Source: an uncultured Planctomycetales bacterium (GTDB lineage Bacteria; Omnitrophota; Gorgyraeia; Zapsychrales; Fredricksoniimonadaceae). Taken from it: DNA of 64,000 nucleotides. The translations under genes and the position numbers were made by a program. Where the stretch lies: assembly GCA_964583975.1 (NCBI GenBank), contig CAZOXU010000010.1:9779-73778 (forward strand), given 5' to 3'. Within the stretch, counting starts at the first letter, position 1. Every line of letters starts with the position of its first letter. The notes under the pieces are model-generated. The model was not told where the DNA came from. It saw only the letters and a program-made list of their open reading frames with translations, and searched no databases. This document shows, in pieces, positions 57,742-61,838 of this stretch.

Positions 57742-59349
57742 ATGAGTAAATATATTTTCGTCACAGGCGGGGTTGTTTCAAGTTTGGGTAAAGGTATTGC
57801 TGCTGCATCTTTAGCAAAATTGCTTGAAGCCCGAGGCCTCAAGATTGCCATCATTAAATGCGATCCATACCTTAACGTTGACCCAGGCACCATGAATCCT
57901 TTCCAACACGGGGAGGTTTATGTTACTGATGATGGAGCAGAGACCGACCTCGACTTAGGACACTATGAACGCTTTACCAATGCACGTCTTTCGAAAGACA
58001 GCAGCATCACAGCAGGTAAGGTTTACTATTCTGTCATCACCAAGGAACGCAAAGGCGATTACCTTGGTAAAACCGTTCAAATTATTCCGCATATCACTGA
58101 TGAAATCAAAGACCGCATCAAGAAGGTGGCTAAGGCCAATGATGTGGATATTACCATTGTTGAAATCGGAGGCACGGTTGGTGATATTGAAAGCCTTCCT
58201 TTCTTGGAAGCTATTCGTCAATTGCGTTGGGAGCTAGGTGAGAATTATGCACTTAATATTCATGTGACCTTACTGCCATTTATCAAATCAGCCGGTGAAC
58301 AGAAAACCAAACCAACTCAACATAGCGTCGGACGTCTGCGCGAAATAGGTATTATCCCCAATATTCTTTTATGTCGTACCGAGCGACCCATCACCCATGA
58401 ACAGCGTGAGAAGATTGCTTTGTTTTGTAATGTGGATGTCAAATCTGTTGTGGAAGCCTCCGATGTGAAACATATCTATGAAGTGCCTGCGAATTTGAAA
58501 AAAGGCGGGCTAGATGAATTGGTCTTAGAGAAATTGCATATTAAGTTGCCTGATAAGGGGCTAAAGTCTTGGGAAGAGGGCGTTCTTAAAAGATTACGAT
58601 CTCCCGAACACGAAGTGAAGATTGCAGTGGTAGGTAAATATATTTCGTTACAAGATGCTTATAAGTCTATCTATGAAGCGCTTGTACATGGGGGTATTGC
58701 TAATAATACAAAAGTCAACATTGTTAAGATTGATTCGGAAGATATTGAAAAAGGTGATCCCAAGAAACTTCTTAAAGGTATTCAAGGAATCCTTATTCCC
58801 GGTGGTTTTGGTAATCGTGGCATTGAAGGCAAGGTTAAGACAGTTGAATATGCCCGTAAACACAAGATACCATTTTTTGGGATCTGTTTAGGGATGCAAA
58901 TTGCTACGATTGAGTTTGCCCGTAATATTTGCGGTTTAAAGGGAGCTAACTCGACAGAATTTGATCGAGAAACCAAGTATCCTGTGATCAGTCTTTTGGA
59001 AGAACAAAAAGAAGTTAAAAATTTGGGTGCAACCATGCGTTTGGGAGTTTACGATTGCGAAATTCAAAAAGGCACCAAAAGCTCTGAAGCCTATAAAAAT
59101 CAAAAGATTTCTGAACGACATCGCCATCGTTATGAATTTAATAATGAGTACCGTTCACAATTAGAAGAAAAAGGATTTTTGATTGCTGGTCGAAATATTG
59201 ATAAAGATTTGGTTGAAATTATCGAGATCAAGGACCATCCTTGGTTTGTAGGTTGCCAATTTCATCCTGAATTTAAATCCAAACCAGACGTTGCCCATCC
59301 GTTGTTTAAAGCGTTTGTGGCAGCAGCCTTGGGGCAACCCAGAAAATAG
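57742..59349 (+). CDS. pyrG: CTP synthase
   Basis: 535 aa with an N-terminal synthetase domain ([16 protein letters not shown]) and a C-terminal GATase (GICLGMQ). Confidence 0.95.
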
Positions 59350-59361
59350 TTGATGATTTAT

Positions 59362-59443
59362 GCGCGGGTGGCGGAATTGGTATACGCGCACGTTTGAGGG
59401 GCGTGTGCCGCAAGGCTTGAGGGTTCAACTCCCTCCCCGCGCA
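59362..59443 (+). tRNA. tRNA-Leu (anticodon GAG), class II with a long variable arm
   Basis: Manual fold. Acceptor GCGCGGG/CCCGCGC with discriminator A. D-arm GCG-GAATTGGTATA-CGC. Anticodon stem CACGT/GCGTG with loop TTGAGGG, giving anticodon GAG. 13 nt variable arm TGCCGCAAGGCTT. T-arm GAGGG-TTCAACT-CCCTC. No encoded CCA. Confidence 0.8.
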
Positions 59444-59455
59444 CTGTATAAAAAT

Positions 59456-59737
59456 ATGCATTACGTTTACGTATTAAGAAGTATTAAAAATCAAAGACGT
59501 TATGTAGGAAGTACGGGGTTATTGCCTGAAGAACGTTGTCGAGAGCATAATGCGGGCGCTAGTAGGTGGACAAAAGGCAATCGTCCATTTGTTTTAATGT
59601 ATCAAGAAAGCTATTCGACAAATACAGAAGCACGGAAACGTGAGAATTTTCTAAAAAGTGGGGTAGGAAGGAAATTCTTAGATAGCCTTTTAAATCATGA
59701 AAGGGTTTCCGCCGAAGGCGGATCAGCCTCTGGCTGA
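59456..59737 (+). CDS. GIY-YIG nuclease superfamily small protein (UPF0213/YhbQ-like)
   Basis: 93 aa from the ATG at 59456 with the GIY-YIG core (YVYVLRS ... RYVGSTGLL ... R..EHN). The ORF-track N-terminal extension runs over the tRNA and is not credible. Confidence 0.7.
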   Translation: MHYVYVLRSIKNQRRYVGSTGLLPEERCREHNAGASRWTKGNRPFVLMYQESYSTNTEARKRENFLKSGVGRKFLDSLLNHERVSAEGGSASG

Positions 59738-59757
59738 CAACTCCCTCCCCGCGCACT
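59738..59757 (+). repeat. 20 bp direct repeat of the tRNA-Leu 3' end (att-like duplication)
   Basis: CAACTCCCTCCCCGCGCACT is identical to 59426-59445 within the tRNA. It begins immediately after the GIY-YIG stop codon and is preceded by a variable-arm-like hairpin CCGCCGAAGGCGG. Confidence 0.8.
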
Positions 59758-59764
59758 CTGCTTC

Positions 59765-59802
59765 GCTCCAACTGTTGTCTTGCGACAGCAAGACGTTGGA
59801 GC
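59765..59802 (+). promoter_or_regulatory. long near-perfect hairpin upstream of rpe
   Basis: GCTCCAAC-TGTTGTCTTGC-gaca-GCAAGAC-G-TTGGAGC. A candidate terminator/insulator between the tRNA/GIY-YIG unit and rpe, with no strong T-run. Confidence 0.4.
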
Positions 59803-59828
59803 TTCGCAGAAATAAACCAGGTAAACTT

Positions 59829-60539
59829 ATGGCAAAACCGATTGAAGTATCTGCAAGTATCCTTGCTGCTGATTTTGCAAATCTAGCTCGCGATATCAAG
59901 CGTTCTGAAGAATTTGGTGTCGATCGTTTTCATGTAGATTGTATGGATGGCCATTTTGTACCTAACATGACTATTGGTCCAATCATTATCCAAGCCATGC
60001 GTGGGTATACCCAATTACCCATCGAAGCTCATTTGATGATTGAAAACCCTTGGAATTATATTGAACATTATGCCAAGGCAGGTGCGGATATTATTCAAAT
60101 TCAAGTCGAGTGTTATGGGCTTCGTCGTCCGAATTGCCGCCAATTTGGTCAGTGGCCTAAGGAAATAGATGTGGTGGATATTGACGGTGATTTATTAATT
60201 GCTGATTTAAGAAAAATTCGTGCTTTAGGAAAAAAGGCTTTTATTGTAGTCAATCCAGGTACGCCGCTATTTAAGGAAATATTACCTGAGTGCGATGGCG
60301 TATTGATCATGTCTGTTAATCCAGGCTTTGCGGGGCAGAAATTTATTCCTACCGTTTTACCTAAGTTAGAAGAACTTAAAAAAAGTTTTAAGGGTGATAT
60401 TGCGATCGATGGTGGCATCAATGACCAAACAGCGCCTGGCGCCGTTGGGGCAGGAGCCAGGGTTTTGATCACAGCCAGCTATTTGTATGGAGCCTCAAAC
60501 CCTAAAGAAGTCGTTGCCTCTCTAAAGCGCCTCAATTAG
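59829..60539 (+). CDS. rpe: ribulose-phosphate 3-epimerase
   Basis: 236 aa from MAKPIEVSASILAADF with Rpe motifs (HVDCMDGHFVPN, metal His/Asp). It has a roughly 20 aa insertion (CYGLRRPNCRQFGQWPKEIDV) relative to typical Rpe. The ORF-track start at 59697 reads through the upstream repeat. Confidence 0.85.
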   Translation: MAKPIEVSASILAADFANLARDIKRSEEFGVDRFHVDCMDGHFVPNMTIGPIIIQAMRGYTQLPIEAHLMIENPWNYIEHYAKAGADIIQIQVECYGLRRPNCRQFGQWPKEIDVVDIDGDLLIADLRKIRALGKKAFIVVNPGTPLFKEILPECDGVLIMSVNPGFAGQKFIPTVLPKLEELKKSFKGDIAIDGGINDQTAPGAVGAGARVLITASYLYGASNPKEVVASLKRLN

Positions 60540-60575
60540 CTCACAGGCTGATTGTGTGGTATATTTACTATATCT

Positions 60576-61838
60576 ATGAGACTTTTTAAATTTAAGAATC
60601 CCACGGGACAAACGGTTTTGGAATATATGCTGATTTTAGCTGTCGTGGGAGTGATTGTTCTTTCCAGCTTCGCCTTTCTTGTCCCTCGAGTGAATAAAAG
60701 CTCAGAAGGATATTATAATTCTGTCTCACGCGTCATGATGGGAGAGGATCCTCAACCTATTAATGGGGGTTGGTGTCCTGTTGCAGCATCCAATATGCAA
60801 GCTGGCGCGGCGGACAATGCTACTATCTATCGAACATGTGAATGCCCGGCACCAGCTTTTGGCGGGGCTTATTGTGATCCTACCGATAGTTTTAATGGAA
60901 ATAATGTAAGTTGCTTAGGGGCAAGCTGTACTCCTACAGGCACATGTGTGCCTCAATGTGCAGGTAAACAATGTGGTCCCGATGGCTGTGGGGGCAATTG
61001 CGGATTTTGTTCTTCCGTACAATCGTGCACCGCAACGGGGCAATGCTTGTGTCCTAGTTTTGCTTGTAGTAGTCCTATCAATTCAGTACCTAATGCCACG
61101 TGTACTTCTTGTATCTGTCCACAGTATTCTACTTATAATGCGGGACCACCAGCCAGTTGCGATTATCCAAGCACCTTGGTTTGTCCCCCAGGCACAGGCT
61201 TAATTCCAAATGCCACCAACACAGATTGCATTTGTCCACAATATTCATACTGGAATTTTCAAACTCATCGATGTGTTTATCCTAGCTTCCCTTGGAATTG
61301 TCCTAATAATTTGATCCCTAATCCTTATTTTGATCCGAATGCGGCCGCAGGTACTCCAAATAGTTTCGCCTGCATTTGTCCATTAGGGTCTACTTATAAT
61401 TCAGTAGATAATAGTTGTCATTATGCTCCTATAGTGTGTGATCCATCTAAAAATTGGGCCCCTGATCCAACCGGAACACAATGTTGGTGCTATAGCGGTT
61501 TTTATTATGATTGCACATCAGACAGTTGTGTTTTTGGAACTCCACCGGATTGTCCTGCTGCATGCTCTGGAAACAATTGTGGCTGTGCACCCAATGGCTG
61601 TAGTTGCGGTACATGTGGAGCAAACTCGACTTGTTCGTCTTCCTCATCACCAGGACAGTGCAGTTTAATTTGCACAACCCAAAGCGTAAATACATCCCAA
61701 TGTGGTAGTGCGACCATGCCTGGGGCTAATAATGGAAACAATAGTACGGGTCAATGTCCTTTTGGATGTACGGGAACAATTACTGCGGTATGCAACAACG
61801 GGACGTTTAGTATTACGACAGATACCTGCCATCCCTAA
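60576..61838 (+). CDS. Flp/prepilin-like N-terminal leader fused to a large cysteine-rich extracellular domain
   Basis: From MRLFKFKNPTG|QTVLEYMLILAVVGVIVL (G-x4-EY prepilin/Flp-type processing motif plus a hydrophobic helix), followed by roughly 390 aa with about 60 Cys and recurring CICPQYS(T/Y)(Y/W)N modules, N/S/T/P-rich. Coordinates follow the ORF track. My line-based reading of the first codons is offset by 1 nt, so the start codon needs confirmation. Confidence 0.6.
   Translation: MRLFKFKNPTGQTVLEYMLILAVVGVIVLSSFAFLVPRVNKSSEGYYNSVSRVMMGEDPQPINGGWCPVAASNMQAGAADNATIYRTCECPAPAFGGAYCDPTDSFNGNNVSCLGASCTPTGTCVPQCAGKQCGPDGCGGNCGFCSSVQSCTATGQCLCPSFACSSPINSVPNATCTSCICPQYSTYNAGPPASCDYPSTLVCPPGTGLIPNATNTDCICPQYSYWNFQTHRCVYPSFPWNCPNNLIPNPYFDPNAAAGTPNSFACICPLGSTYNSVDNSCHYAPIVCDPSKNWAPDPTGTQCWCYSGFYYDCTSDSCVFGTPPDCPAACSGNNCGCAPNGCSCGTCGANSTCSSSSSPGQCSLICTTQSVNTSQCGSATMPGANNGNNSTGQCPFGCTGTITAVCNNGTFSITTDTCHP

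Follow-up and report, generated by a model that had tools for sequence, protein, structure and literature searches.

A GIY-YIG nuclease gene and a double palindrome bracketed by a duplicated tRNA-Leu end: a candidate minimal selfish element at transfer RNA genes

How did a second copy of the 3' end of a transfer RNA (tRNA) gene come to lie behind a small nuclease gene, between two housekeeping genes of an uncultured bacterium? The locus belongs to contig CAZOXU010000010.1 (assembly GCA_964583975.1), of which a stretch of 64,000 nucleotides (nt), hereafter the window, was analysed. In the window, 312 bp stand between the 3' end of the gene for tRNA-Leu(GAG) and its native downstream flank, and they are an insertion relative to the empty sites of relatives. 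We consider it fairly probable that this insertion is a minimal selfish element whose nuclease targets tRNA genes, composed of a leader, a GIY-YIG gene of about 80 codons, a T-arm stub and a double palindrome, the whole being bracketed by a duplication. The features of the site, in which ORF stands for open reading frame and aa for amino acids, are the following.

59362 to 59444, + strand: intact host tRNA-Leu(GAG), the target gene (ARAGORN; Rfam RF00005, 50.3 bits against a gathering score of 29)
59426 to 59445, + strand: left copy of the 20-nt repeat, part of the functional tRNA, from the 3' half of the T-loop to the tRNA 3' end plus 1 nt
59446 to 59455, + strand: A/T-rich 10-nt leader GTATAAAAAT, from the tRNA end to the ATG (read from the sequence)
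59456 to 59737, + strand: GIY-YIG nuclease ORF of 93 aa (Pfam PF01541), with a core of about 80 aa (59456-59695) and a 13-aa tail (59696-59734)
59702 to 59707, + strand: tRNA-like stub AGGGTT, which borders the module towards the ORF and matches tRNA positions 59420-59425 (5' strand of the T-stem with the beginning of the T-loop)
59708 to 59737, + strand: 30-nt double-palindrome module, TCCGCCGAAGGCGGA followed by TCAGCCTCTGGCTGA, at the T-loop position of the displaced fragment
59738 to 59757, + strand: right copy of the 20-nt repeat; this is the tRNA 3' fragment in its displaced position, running on into the native downstream flank
59757 to 59810, + strand: native hairpin of the host locus, 3' of the tRNA (DNA fold of -17.9 kcal/mol, z -5.3)

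The 64 kb contain two exact copies of the repeat CAACTCCCTCCCCGCGCACT, at 59426-59445 and at 59738-59757, and no others. About 0.01 chance matches would be expected even with three mismatches, and two or more matches appeared in none of 100 shuffles. The tRNA-Leu(GAG) and the duplication of its 3' end had both been called from the letters in the original prediction. ARAGORN and Rfam uphold the former and the counts above the latter, and the 93-aa GIY-YIG ORF was also correctly placed directly before the second repeat copy, since its TGA occupies 59735-59737 and the repeat starts on the next base. The duplicated segment runs from the T-loop to the end of the tRNA, and the host therefore keeps a working tRNA. 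Because AGGGTT matches the 5' half of the T-stem and T-loop, the downstream fragment is best read as a T-arm with the 3' strand of the acceptor stem, which holds the module in its T-loop. In the DNA fold the stub pairs with CCCT at 59743-59746, so that stub, module and fragment form a three-way junction. An Rfam search of the insertion region with E-values up to 1 matched the tRNA alone and gave no match for the module or the downstream fragment. Furthermore, the window agrees base for base over 2162 nt with an assembly made independently from another sequencing run (L090, Logan SRR12487046).

The same tRNA-Leu locus in relatives shows what the site looks like with and without the insertion. 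Named homologues of rpe and of the GIY-YIG protein point to an Omnitrophota-type bacterium as the source of the window. The order purF-pyrG-tRNA-Leu(GAG)-rpe is conserved, and occupancy varies. In the window, pyrG extends from 57742 to 59349, the tRNA, which is the sole tRNA of the window, begins 12 nt past the pyrG stop codon, and rpe lies downstream of the insertion at 59829-60539. The orthologous tRNA-Leu was found at the same locus in L084, L086, L088 and L001. Empty sites, for which a check of relatives had been proposed at the outset, were indeed found. In L084 the tRNA is directly followed by TCTGCTTCGC, the sequence that begins at 59756 in the window and continues its second repeat copy, and in L088/L089 pyrG, tRNA-Leu(GAG) and rpe follow one another without the ORF. 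A MAFFT alignment of filled and empty sites scattered downstream, and the flanks were compared by direct reading. The strong hairpin that had been noted between the insertion and rpe is real. However, since the same flank, with a homologous hairpin running from TCTGCTTCGC to CTTCGCAG, follows the tRNA in the insertion-free L084, it is a part of the host locus and not of the element. The P0002 contig and L001/L002 are filled in the window-like arrangement, with GIY-YIG proteins that are 76% and 68% identical to that of the window, respectively.

In L086, an Omnitrophota metagenome-assembled genome (MAG), the locus is filled from the other side (2087-2482). A 79-aa GIY-YIG protein, 43% identical, is encoded upstream of the intact tRNA, and a 5' pseudo-tRNA-Leu is interrupted in its anticodon arm by the 20-nt perfect palindrome CCTGCCTGCCGGCAGGCAGG. 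L001 (1503-1607), as well as L002, carries a second, ORF-less insertion upstream of its intact tRNA-Leu, which consists of 5 nt of native leader, tRNA positions 1-34, a 30-nt module in the anticodon loop, GAGGG and an A-rich spacer of about 30 nt. This looks like an element of the mirror form that has lost its ORF, so that the tRNA was hit twice. The same tRNA-Leu has thus been invaded independently more than once (L086, L001). By comparing the host proteins, the window is nearest to the empty L084 (80% identity in rpe, 91% in pyrG) and most distant from the filled L001 (69% and 85%). Filled and empty states are therefore interleaved among the relatives, which means losses, repeated gains or both. 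The 20-nt repeat itself differs at three positions between the window and L001, although the two copies are identical within each genome, and homogenisation or re-insertion must therefore have taken place.

Movement within a single genome was found in Bacteroidetes, where one contig holds copies of the element behind tRNA-Ser(CGA) and tRNA-Ser(TGA) (L053 and L058). Identity between these copies is about 96% across a stretch of about 331 nt that opens on the base directly behind the tRNA and closes with the module's final base, whereas the tRNAs and the outer flanks differ. The element has moved between the two tRNA-Ser genes. The T-stem stub is of the CGA type in both copies and is therefore carried along when the element moves. 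The 18 nt that follow the module agree with the local tRNA in each copy. In L019, by comparison, the corresponding fragment belongs to a foreign tRNA type and not to the local one. Two simple rules were rejected on these grounds: that the element always carries a replacement tRNA end, as the mobile endonuclease ORFs (mORFs) of mitochondria do, is contradicted by L058, and that the duplication is always made from the target is contradicted by L019. Some loci form tandem arrays, with four 70-nt module-bearing repeats in L126 (2550-2789), repeated pseudo-tRNA-Lys 3' copies in L004 (2345-2560) and a second leader plus ORF start in L033 (2001-2650). Such arrays are the expected product of unequal exchange between flanking repeats, the reciprocal product of which is a precise empty site.

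The arrangement is not confined to this clade. A protein-pattern scan of one genome per GTDB species gave 80 family loci from about 8 phyla, including Patescibacteria, Omnitrophota, Ignavibacteria, Bacteroidota and Dehalococcoidia as well as MAGs labelled Planctomycetes, Elusimicrobia and Gammaproteobacteria. Of the 80 loci, 73 have a same-strand tRNA no more than 200 nt away from the ORF, and for another 3 the distance is at most 400 nt. The neighbouring tRNAs have 11 identities (Lys, Val, Ser, Pro, Leu, Gln, Ala, Asp, Arg, Asn and His) and the ORF may stand on either side of them, so that the targeting of tRNA-Leu in particular, as originally proposed, does not describe the family. Two mirror forms were distinguished. 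In the first (55 loci), a 5' fragment of the same tRNA is followed by the ORF and then by the intact tRNA; in the second, to which the window belongs (18 loci), the intact tRNA precedes the ORF and a 3' fragment closes the arrangement. The fragments (12-82 nt) are mostly identical to the neighbouring tRNA, for up to 82 nt. The 5' fragments begin at tRNA position 1 and the 3' fragments finish at the tRNA 3' end. Accordingly, identity ends within 2 nt of position +1 in 29/34 upstream-ORF loci; in 10/16 downstream-ORF loci it ends no further than 2 nt from the tRNA 3' end. Most of those exceptions that have long shared flanks resemble tandem arrays. Throughout the family a tRNA-like stub of 0-15 nt separates the ORF region from the palindrome module. 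The ORF is always on the tRNA strand, and in the other downstream-ORF loci the leader measures 0-55 nt. About 24 of the 80 loci lie within 2 kb of a contig end (e.g., L005, L006, L018, L020, L027 and L048), and the elements of this family probably break metagenome assemblies.

The only domain found in the encoded protein is PF01541, which matches residues 1-68 with 54.9 bits against a cutoff of 22.6 (E = 1.1e-14). Among 32 homologues, R27, H31 and E63 are invariant and Y5 and Y16 nearly so. By the numbering of I-TevI, we take these five residues to have catalytic or metal-binding roles, and their conservation fits an active GIY-YIG centre. The AlphaFold2 model has a mean predicted local distance difference test (pLDDT) score of 89.3; it is confident up to about residue 86 and falls below 50 for residues 87-93. 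Its strands (2-9, 15-20 and 45-53) together with helices form the GIY-YIG fold. In a sequence search of the PDB the best matches were the UPF0213 proteins 1YWL (E = 3.7e-9) and 1ZG2 (E = 1.4e-8), followed by SLX1 (about 1e-3) and I-TevI (0.08). Foldseek returned the same order, namely UPF0213 proteins, the SLX1 nuclease domain (query-normalised TM-score up to 0.63) and I-TevI catalytic domains. Judged by these matches, the protein belongs to the UPF0213/SLX1 branch of the GIY-YIG superfamily and amounts to the catalytic domain alone. The 13-aa tail is nothing but translated tRNA stub and module, with the TGA in the last hairpin of the module. Most of the other aligned homologues finish near residue 80, run into a tRNA gene (AVSSVG...) or read the module in another frame (FPPEADQPLAE). 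Compared with L001, the ORF has 0.25 nonsynonymous substitutions per site (dN), saturated synonymous substitutions (dS) and identities of 0.70, 0.81 and 0.50 at the three codon positions. Given this dN with a saturated dS, the ORF is under purifying selection. The window's own record contains a 125-aa product (P0001), which matches an ORF begun inside the tRNA (59360-59737).

The module consists of two 6-bp stems with 3-nt loops, laid out as T-CCGCC-GAA-GGCGG-A and T-CAGCC-TCT-GGCTG-A, and folds as DNA with -11.4 kcal/mol (z -4.2). The window contains it once, alongside a single ORF of the family. The original prediction saw only CCGCCGAAGGCGG (59709-59721) and called it a degenerate variable-arm-like hairpin just before the repeat. 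In fact, it is the first half of a conserved and covarying 30-nt module that also occurs solo, and it does not adjoin the repeat, since the second hairpin, overlooked at the time, lies in between. Between the window and L001 the stems of the module are identical and only the loops differ, while the third codon positions of the ORF are just 50% identical. A relaxed pattern, which fixes only CC-NNN-GG twice at a distance of 15 nt, was 24 times as dense in the roughly 300 nt around family ORFs as in the rest of the flanks. For 40 modules found with it, 98.1% of cells pair in the two-hairpin structure, as opposed to 22-43% in slid controls. There were 73 double-sided changes, and 8 of the 12 pairs covary, the other 4 having been set by the search pattern. 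Modules within partial tRNA copies stand after nucleotides 8, 12 or 17 (D-loop), 33-37 (anticodon loop) or 55 (T-loop), all of which are single-stranded in the cloverleaf, and some copies hold two or three modules. That such copies might be functional tRNAs interrupted in the manner of introns was considered and rejected, as all of the copies inspected are cut short towards the ORF and are missing one of the acceptor strands. Stems of the types CCGCC/CAGCC belong to the window's group, GAGCC/GCGCC to Bacteroidota tRNA-Ser loci and CACCC/CGCCC/CGACC to Microgenomates tRNA-Pro loci. Moreover, the 20-nt palindrome (CCTGCCTGCCGGCAGGCAGG in L086) goes with the divergent ORFs of L072, L078 and L086, hinting that the palindrome type tracks the protein lineage. 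Around position 6011 of L169, a pseudo-tRNA 3' copy has both the 30-nt module and the palindrome CCTGCCTACCGGCAGGCAGG side by side, which shows that one leftover tRNA copy can collect modules of different families.

The module is also found away from the ORF. The exact pattern was scanned in metagenome contigs and matched at least 120 stretches, and 88 modules in 80 loci were analysed. Among the matches listed, 21 of the 88 modules have a tRNA within 500 nt. The flanks of the solo sites share the consensus A-[T/A]-T-T before the module and A-[A/G] after it, and direct repeats of at least 5 nt span the module at 26% of these sites, as compared with 3% in shuffled pairings. Four long ORFs contain a module in frame (L096 6669, L102 761, L147 1940 and L160 1371). 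Two of them encode aminoacyl-tRNA-synthetase-like proteins, one a membrane protein and one a methyltransferase-like protein, and each gains about 10 residues (e.g., SPPKADQPLAE). In addition, L133, L100, L150, L092 and L125 have the tRNA architecture without the ORF, that is, an intact tRNA, a spacer of 10-40 nt, a stub, a module and a fragment. A general preference of solo modules for the loops of larger hairpins was considered and dropped, since there was no enrichment (6% vs. 3%) and only individual cases were seen (L101, L161). Rfam applied to 17 solo-module loci returned just an unrelated thiamine pyrophosphate (TPP) riboswitch.

We hypothesize that the element probably spreads by nuclease-initiated copying. 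The nuclease would recognise the arms of tRNA genes, either by sequence, as phage T4 SegB does with the T-arm, or as DNA in a folded or cruciform state. The SLX1-like, domain-only protein and the position of the junctions at structural landmarks suggest that the enzyme reads a fold and not a long sequence. After a nick or cut in a loop of the tRNA gene, the element may be copied in by repair synthesis through short tRNA homologies, in a homing-like way, with regeneration of the tRNA. The palindrome would then mark and block the cut position in the leftover fragment and could also be the nuclease's own binding structure. Alternatively, it may serve to break up repeats that would otherwise delete the element. 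A simple consensus scan found no sigma-70-type promoter on the + strand between the tRNA and the ATG, and a terminator scan found no canonical terminator. The gene would have no promoter of its own and might be expressed by read-through from the tRNA transcription unit together with tRNA processing. These steps can be extended to a broader reading, which as a whole we regard as doubtful: a GIY-YIG domain of the SLX1 kind, with nothing attached to it, would together with the 30-nt double palindrome constitute a previously unrecognised class of mobile DNA that targets structure. The nuclease would recognise its own hairpin module as well as the cloverleaf arms of tRNA genes, which may fold on the strand displaced during heavy tRNA transcription. 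The element would be inserted between a loop and the tRNA end, with regeneration of the tRNA, and the same enzyme would spread ORF-less modules, including those in frame in proteins and those in other structured-RNA genes.

Several observations weigh against a selfish, tRNA-targeting nuclease element. The intact tRNA next to it still bears the presumed target and would be expected to be cut again. Neither Pfam nor the AlphaFold2 model gives a DNA-binding domain in the core of about 80 aa, unlike proven homing enzymes, and the sole NCBIfam match, to the group-I-intron endonucleases of TIGR01453, reaches 16.3 bits against a cutoff of 56. A classical GIY-YIG homing endonuclease was rejected on both counts. 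Which copy of the repeat the element brings is ambiguous, with the local type in L058 and the foreign type in L019. No relatives were found in viral contigs, which offers no vector for horizontal spread, and a phage-borne origin was dropped for this reason. Relatives of the window's own clade with just 68% protein identity carry the element at the same site, and the window copy, instead of having moved recently, may go back a long way by vertical inheritance, with subsequent losses. Finally, among the matches listed, a family ORF lies within 500 nt of only 8 of the 88 modules and is absent around the other 80; the module may have a life of its own, most copies lacking a nearby ORF.

The last point leads to the main rival explanation, which we judge unlikely. 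Here, the module is the mobile agent and the GIY-YIG protein its dedicated nuclease or transposase, comparable to REP/RAYT pairs (repetitive extragenic palindromes and their associated tyrosine transposases) or to a MITE (a miniature transposable element with inverted repeats) and its autonomous partner. The protein would bind 15-bp palindromes or hairpins, and modules would be pasted into A/T-rich sites and hairpin loops. Copies with the ORF would persist by tRNAs since an insertion into a partial tRNA copy is safe and the gene is transcribed from tRNA promoters. The enrichment of modules beside family ORFs, although most copies are solo, is in its favour, together with the shared flank consensus and direct repeats of the solo sites, the in-frame modules of the four long ORFs and the ORF-less tRNA duplications with a module (L125, L133, L100, L150). 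It would also account for stems that covary and keep their symmetry, for ORF lineages that differ in palindrome type and for the structure-specific nucleases as the nearest folds. However, modules in tRNA loops have no target-site duplication around them, a module at one end of the element alone does not fit two-ended cut-and-paste, and the 64 kb of the window contain a single module. The protein is neither an IS200-type Y1 transposase nor any other known transposase, GIY-YIG being the only domain, and we know of no GIY-YIG transposase. It would be quite improbable, too, that the ORF is an ordinary host gene, i.e., a small UPF0213/SLX1-like nuclease with a cellular role tied to tRNA genes or transcripts, inherited vertically and co-transcribed, beside which fragments and hairpins are incidental debris. 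In favour of this, the ORF keeps its position between pyrG and rpe in relatives at 68-76% protein identity, is under purifying selection and always lies on the tRNA strand at processing distance, and the UPF0213 family is widespread in bacteria. Vertical descent does not explain, though, why closer relatives are empty and more distant ones filled, why nearly identical copies stand at two different tRNAs in one genome, or why there are 11 tRNA identities, both orientations of the architecture and independent invasions of the same tRNA-Leu. Furthermore, the roughly 24 of 80 loci that abut contig ends behave like repeats, and the supposed debris is non-random, with its edges at tRNA ends and its modules in loops.

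The original prediction had seen the signature of site-specific integration and offered two histories, a larger island deleted down to its nuclease gene or a minimal homing-type GIY-YIG element, and the evidence favours the latter. The geometry of intact tRNA, cargo and displaced 3' fragment holds, and a direct repeat of a tRNA 3' end around foreign DNA is the classic sign of attL and attR. The att-site crossover does not hold, as there is no recombinase to perform it. The insert has 312 bp and the GIY-YIG ORF alone, between the housekeeping genes pyrG and rpe. In the 86 homologue loci examined (the 80 GTDB-species loci plus L001-L003, L086 and the P0002 contig), no integrase was noted beside the ORF, and all share the same minimal size and architecture. 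The mirror forms with 5' fragments are not expected of 3'-end att sites, and the module interrupts the tRNA context of the repeat family-wide and at specific positions. An integrase-made island that later lost all but its nuclease is thus very improbable. Hardly credible, in our opinion, is a nucleic-acid-guided nuclease analogous to TnpB/IscB, in which a transcript of module and 20-nt tRNA fragment would serve as scaffold and guide to element-free tRNA genes. A conserved hairpin does adjoin a target-matching segment of about 18-20 nt, which is of the local tRNA type after the jump in L058, the repeat copies co-vary at 3 positions between the window and L001, and the protein has no DNA-binding domain of its own. 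On the other hand, such a guide would match the intact tRNA in cis perfectly, the fragments lie either 5' or 3' of the module with 12-82 nt, and the fragment of L019 mismatches its local tRNA. We know of no means by which an 80-aa GIY-YIG domain could form or read an R-loop.

A minimal selfish nuclease element at tRNA genes, the reading preferred here, shares features with several known systems. Phage T4 SegB carries a DNA-binding region and resembles the element in that a GIY-YIG nuclease gene stands among tRNA genes. It is a free-standing GIY-YIG homing endonuclease encoded in a tRNA gene cluster, drives its own inheritance into genomes lacking it and has a recognition site that contains a T-psi-C stem-loop motif (PMC2330249). 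Therefore, the targeting of a tRNA arm has a precedent. SegB is, however, a phage protein without a partial tRNA duplication or a palindrome module, while the present element is chromosomal, was not found in viral contigs and encodes a bare domain of about 80 aa from the UPF0213/SLX1 branch. The mORFs of mitochondria (e.g., Allomyces atp6; Glomus atp6, atp9, cox2 and nad3) give rise to hybrid genes, in which the gene end is duplicated and the native end displaced, and they are co-transcribed with the host gene (PMC3630166). The order of gene core, duplicated end, endonuclease ORF and displaced native end, with the host gene remaining functional, is the same in both. The differences are that mORFs occupy protein-coding genes of organelles, that their inserted end is foreign and divergent, whereas the copies in the tRNA element are usually identical, and that they have neither a palindrome module nor a mirror form with a 5' fragment. 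With islands and prophages integrated in tRNA genes, the element shares the order of an intact tRNA, then cargo, then a directly repeated tRNA 3' end; it differs in its lack of an integrase, its 312 bp, its 5'-fragment forms and a repeat edge at tRNA loops with an inserted palindrome. REP/RAYT systems (REPIN) and Rickettsia palindromic elements (RPE) are short G+C-rich palindromes, typically in doublets, and RAYT is an IS200-type Y1 transposase. Like the module, they are dispersed solo palindromes rich in G+C, which flank a dedicated gene and in some cases lie in frame in proteins, but the enzyme of the tRNA element is a GIY-YIG nuclease and its gene is tied to tRNA genes. SLX1 and UPF0213 (YhbQ-like) proteins are the best matches in sequence and fold. 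SLX1 has an added RING domain and the partner SLX4 and resolves branched DNA in eukaryotes, and the UPF0213 entries of the PDB (1YWL and 1ZG2) are labelled just as hypothetical proteins. Finally, the rRNA genes of the candidate phyla radiation (CPR) have non-intron insertions that encode GIY-YIG proteins, mostly at the top or base of stem-loops (PMC11270868). They are likewise GIY-YIG insertions in structured-RNA genes, and the Patescibacteria loci of the family come from the CPR lineage. They differ in lying inside rRNA genes with no target duplication, and the paper mentions neither tRNA nor palindromes (0 occurrences; PMC11270868). A literature search, which included the palindrome sequences, found no description of the tRNA-nested GIY-YIG architecture or of the module, with incomplete coverage, so that an earlier description is possible. 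The family is apparently undescribed so far.

If the preferred reading is true, an element of about 310-330 bp would be among the smallest autonomous selfish elements known in bacteria, and it would invade an essential, single-copy-like gene by rebuilding that gene during insertion. It would be a test case for how a nuclease domain without a DNA-binding domain finds its target, and it may tie the GIY-YIG insertions in CPR rRNA genes to a general targeting of the loops of structured-RNA genes. The 30-nt module, which keeps the reading frame and covaries, is a new candidate palindromic selfish repeat with an identifiable partner enzyme. For annotation it matters that the family creates pseudo-tRNAs and mis-called ORFs in genomes.

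Some further observations concern the solo modules and the genes downstream. Many solo modules (L111 3757, L096 6669, L143 3960, L144 5456, L158 647 and L167 597) lie within short tandem arrays whose repeats measure 7-8 nt (AGGAATT, AAAAATC, AGACATT) and continue on both sides, and the direct repeats across solo modules are often part of such arrays. The arrays may have been left behind by several rounds of insertion and excision, each with a target duplication of 7-8 bp. Two non-tRNA contexts of the module recur. In L093, L099, L116, L159 and L170, GTCATTCCGG and, further on, GCTGGCGAT precede the module and AGCTAGCG follows it, and in L105, L121, L136, L145, L146 and L154 the module stands between AGACCCATT and G(A/C)C. 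Both are probably other repeat families or structured elements, and neither reached the gathering score of any Rfam family. The Pfam match of rpe (59829-60539) is split into two stretches, which suggests an internal insertion of about 35-40 residues around VECYGLRRPNCRQFGQWPKEIDVVDIDGDLL relative to the family model. After rpe, an ORF of 428 aa (60552-61838) begins with an N-terminal hydrophobic segment and has very many Cys residues in repeated CP/CxxC-like contexts. The gene in this position ranges from 153 to more than 1090 aa among relatives, and the slot after rpe is therefore variable.

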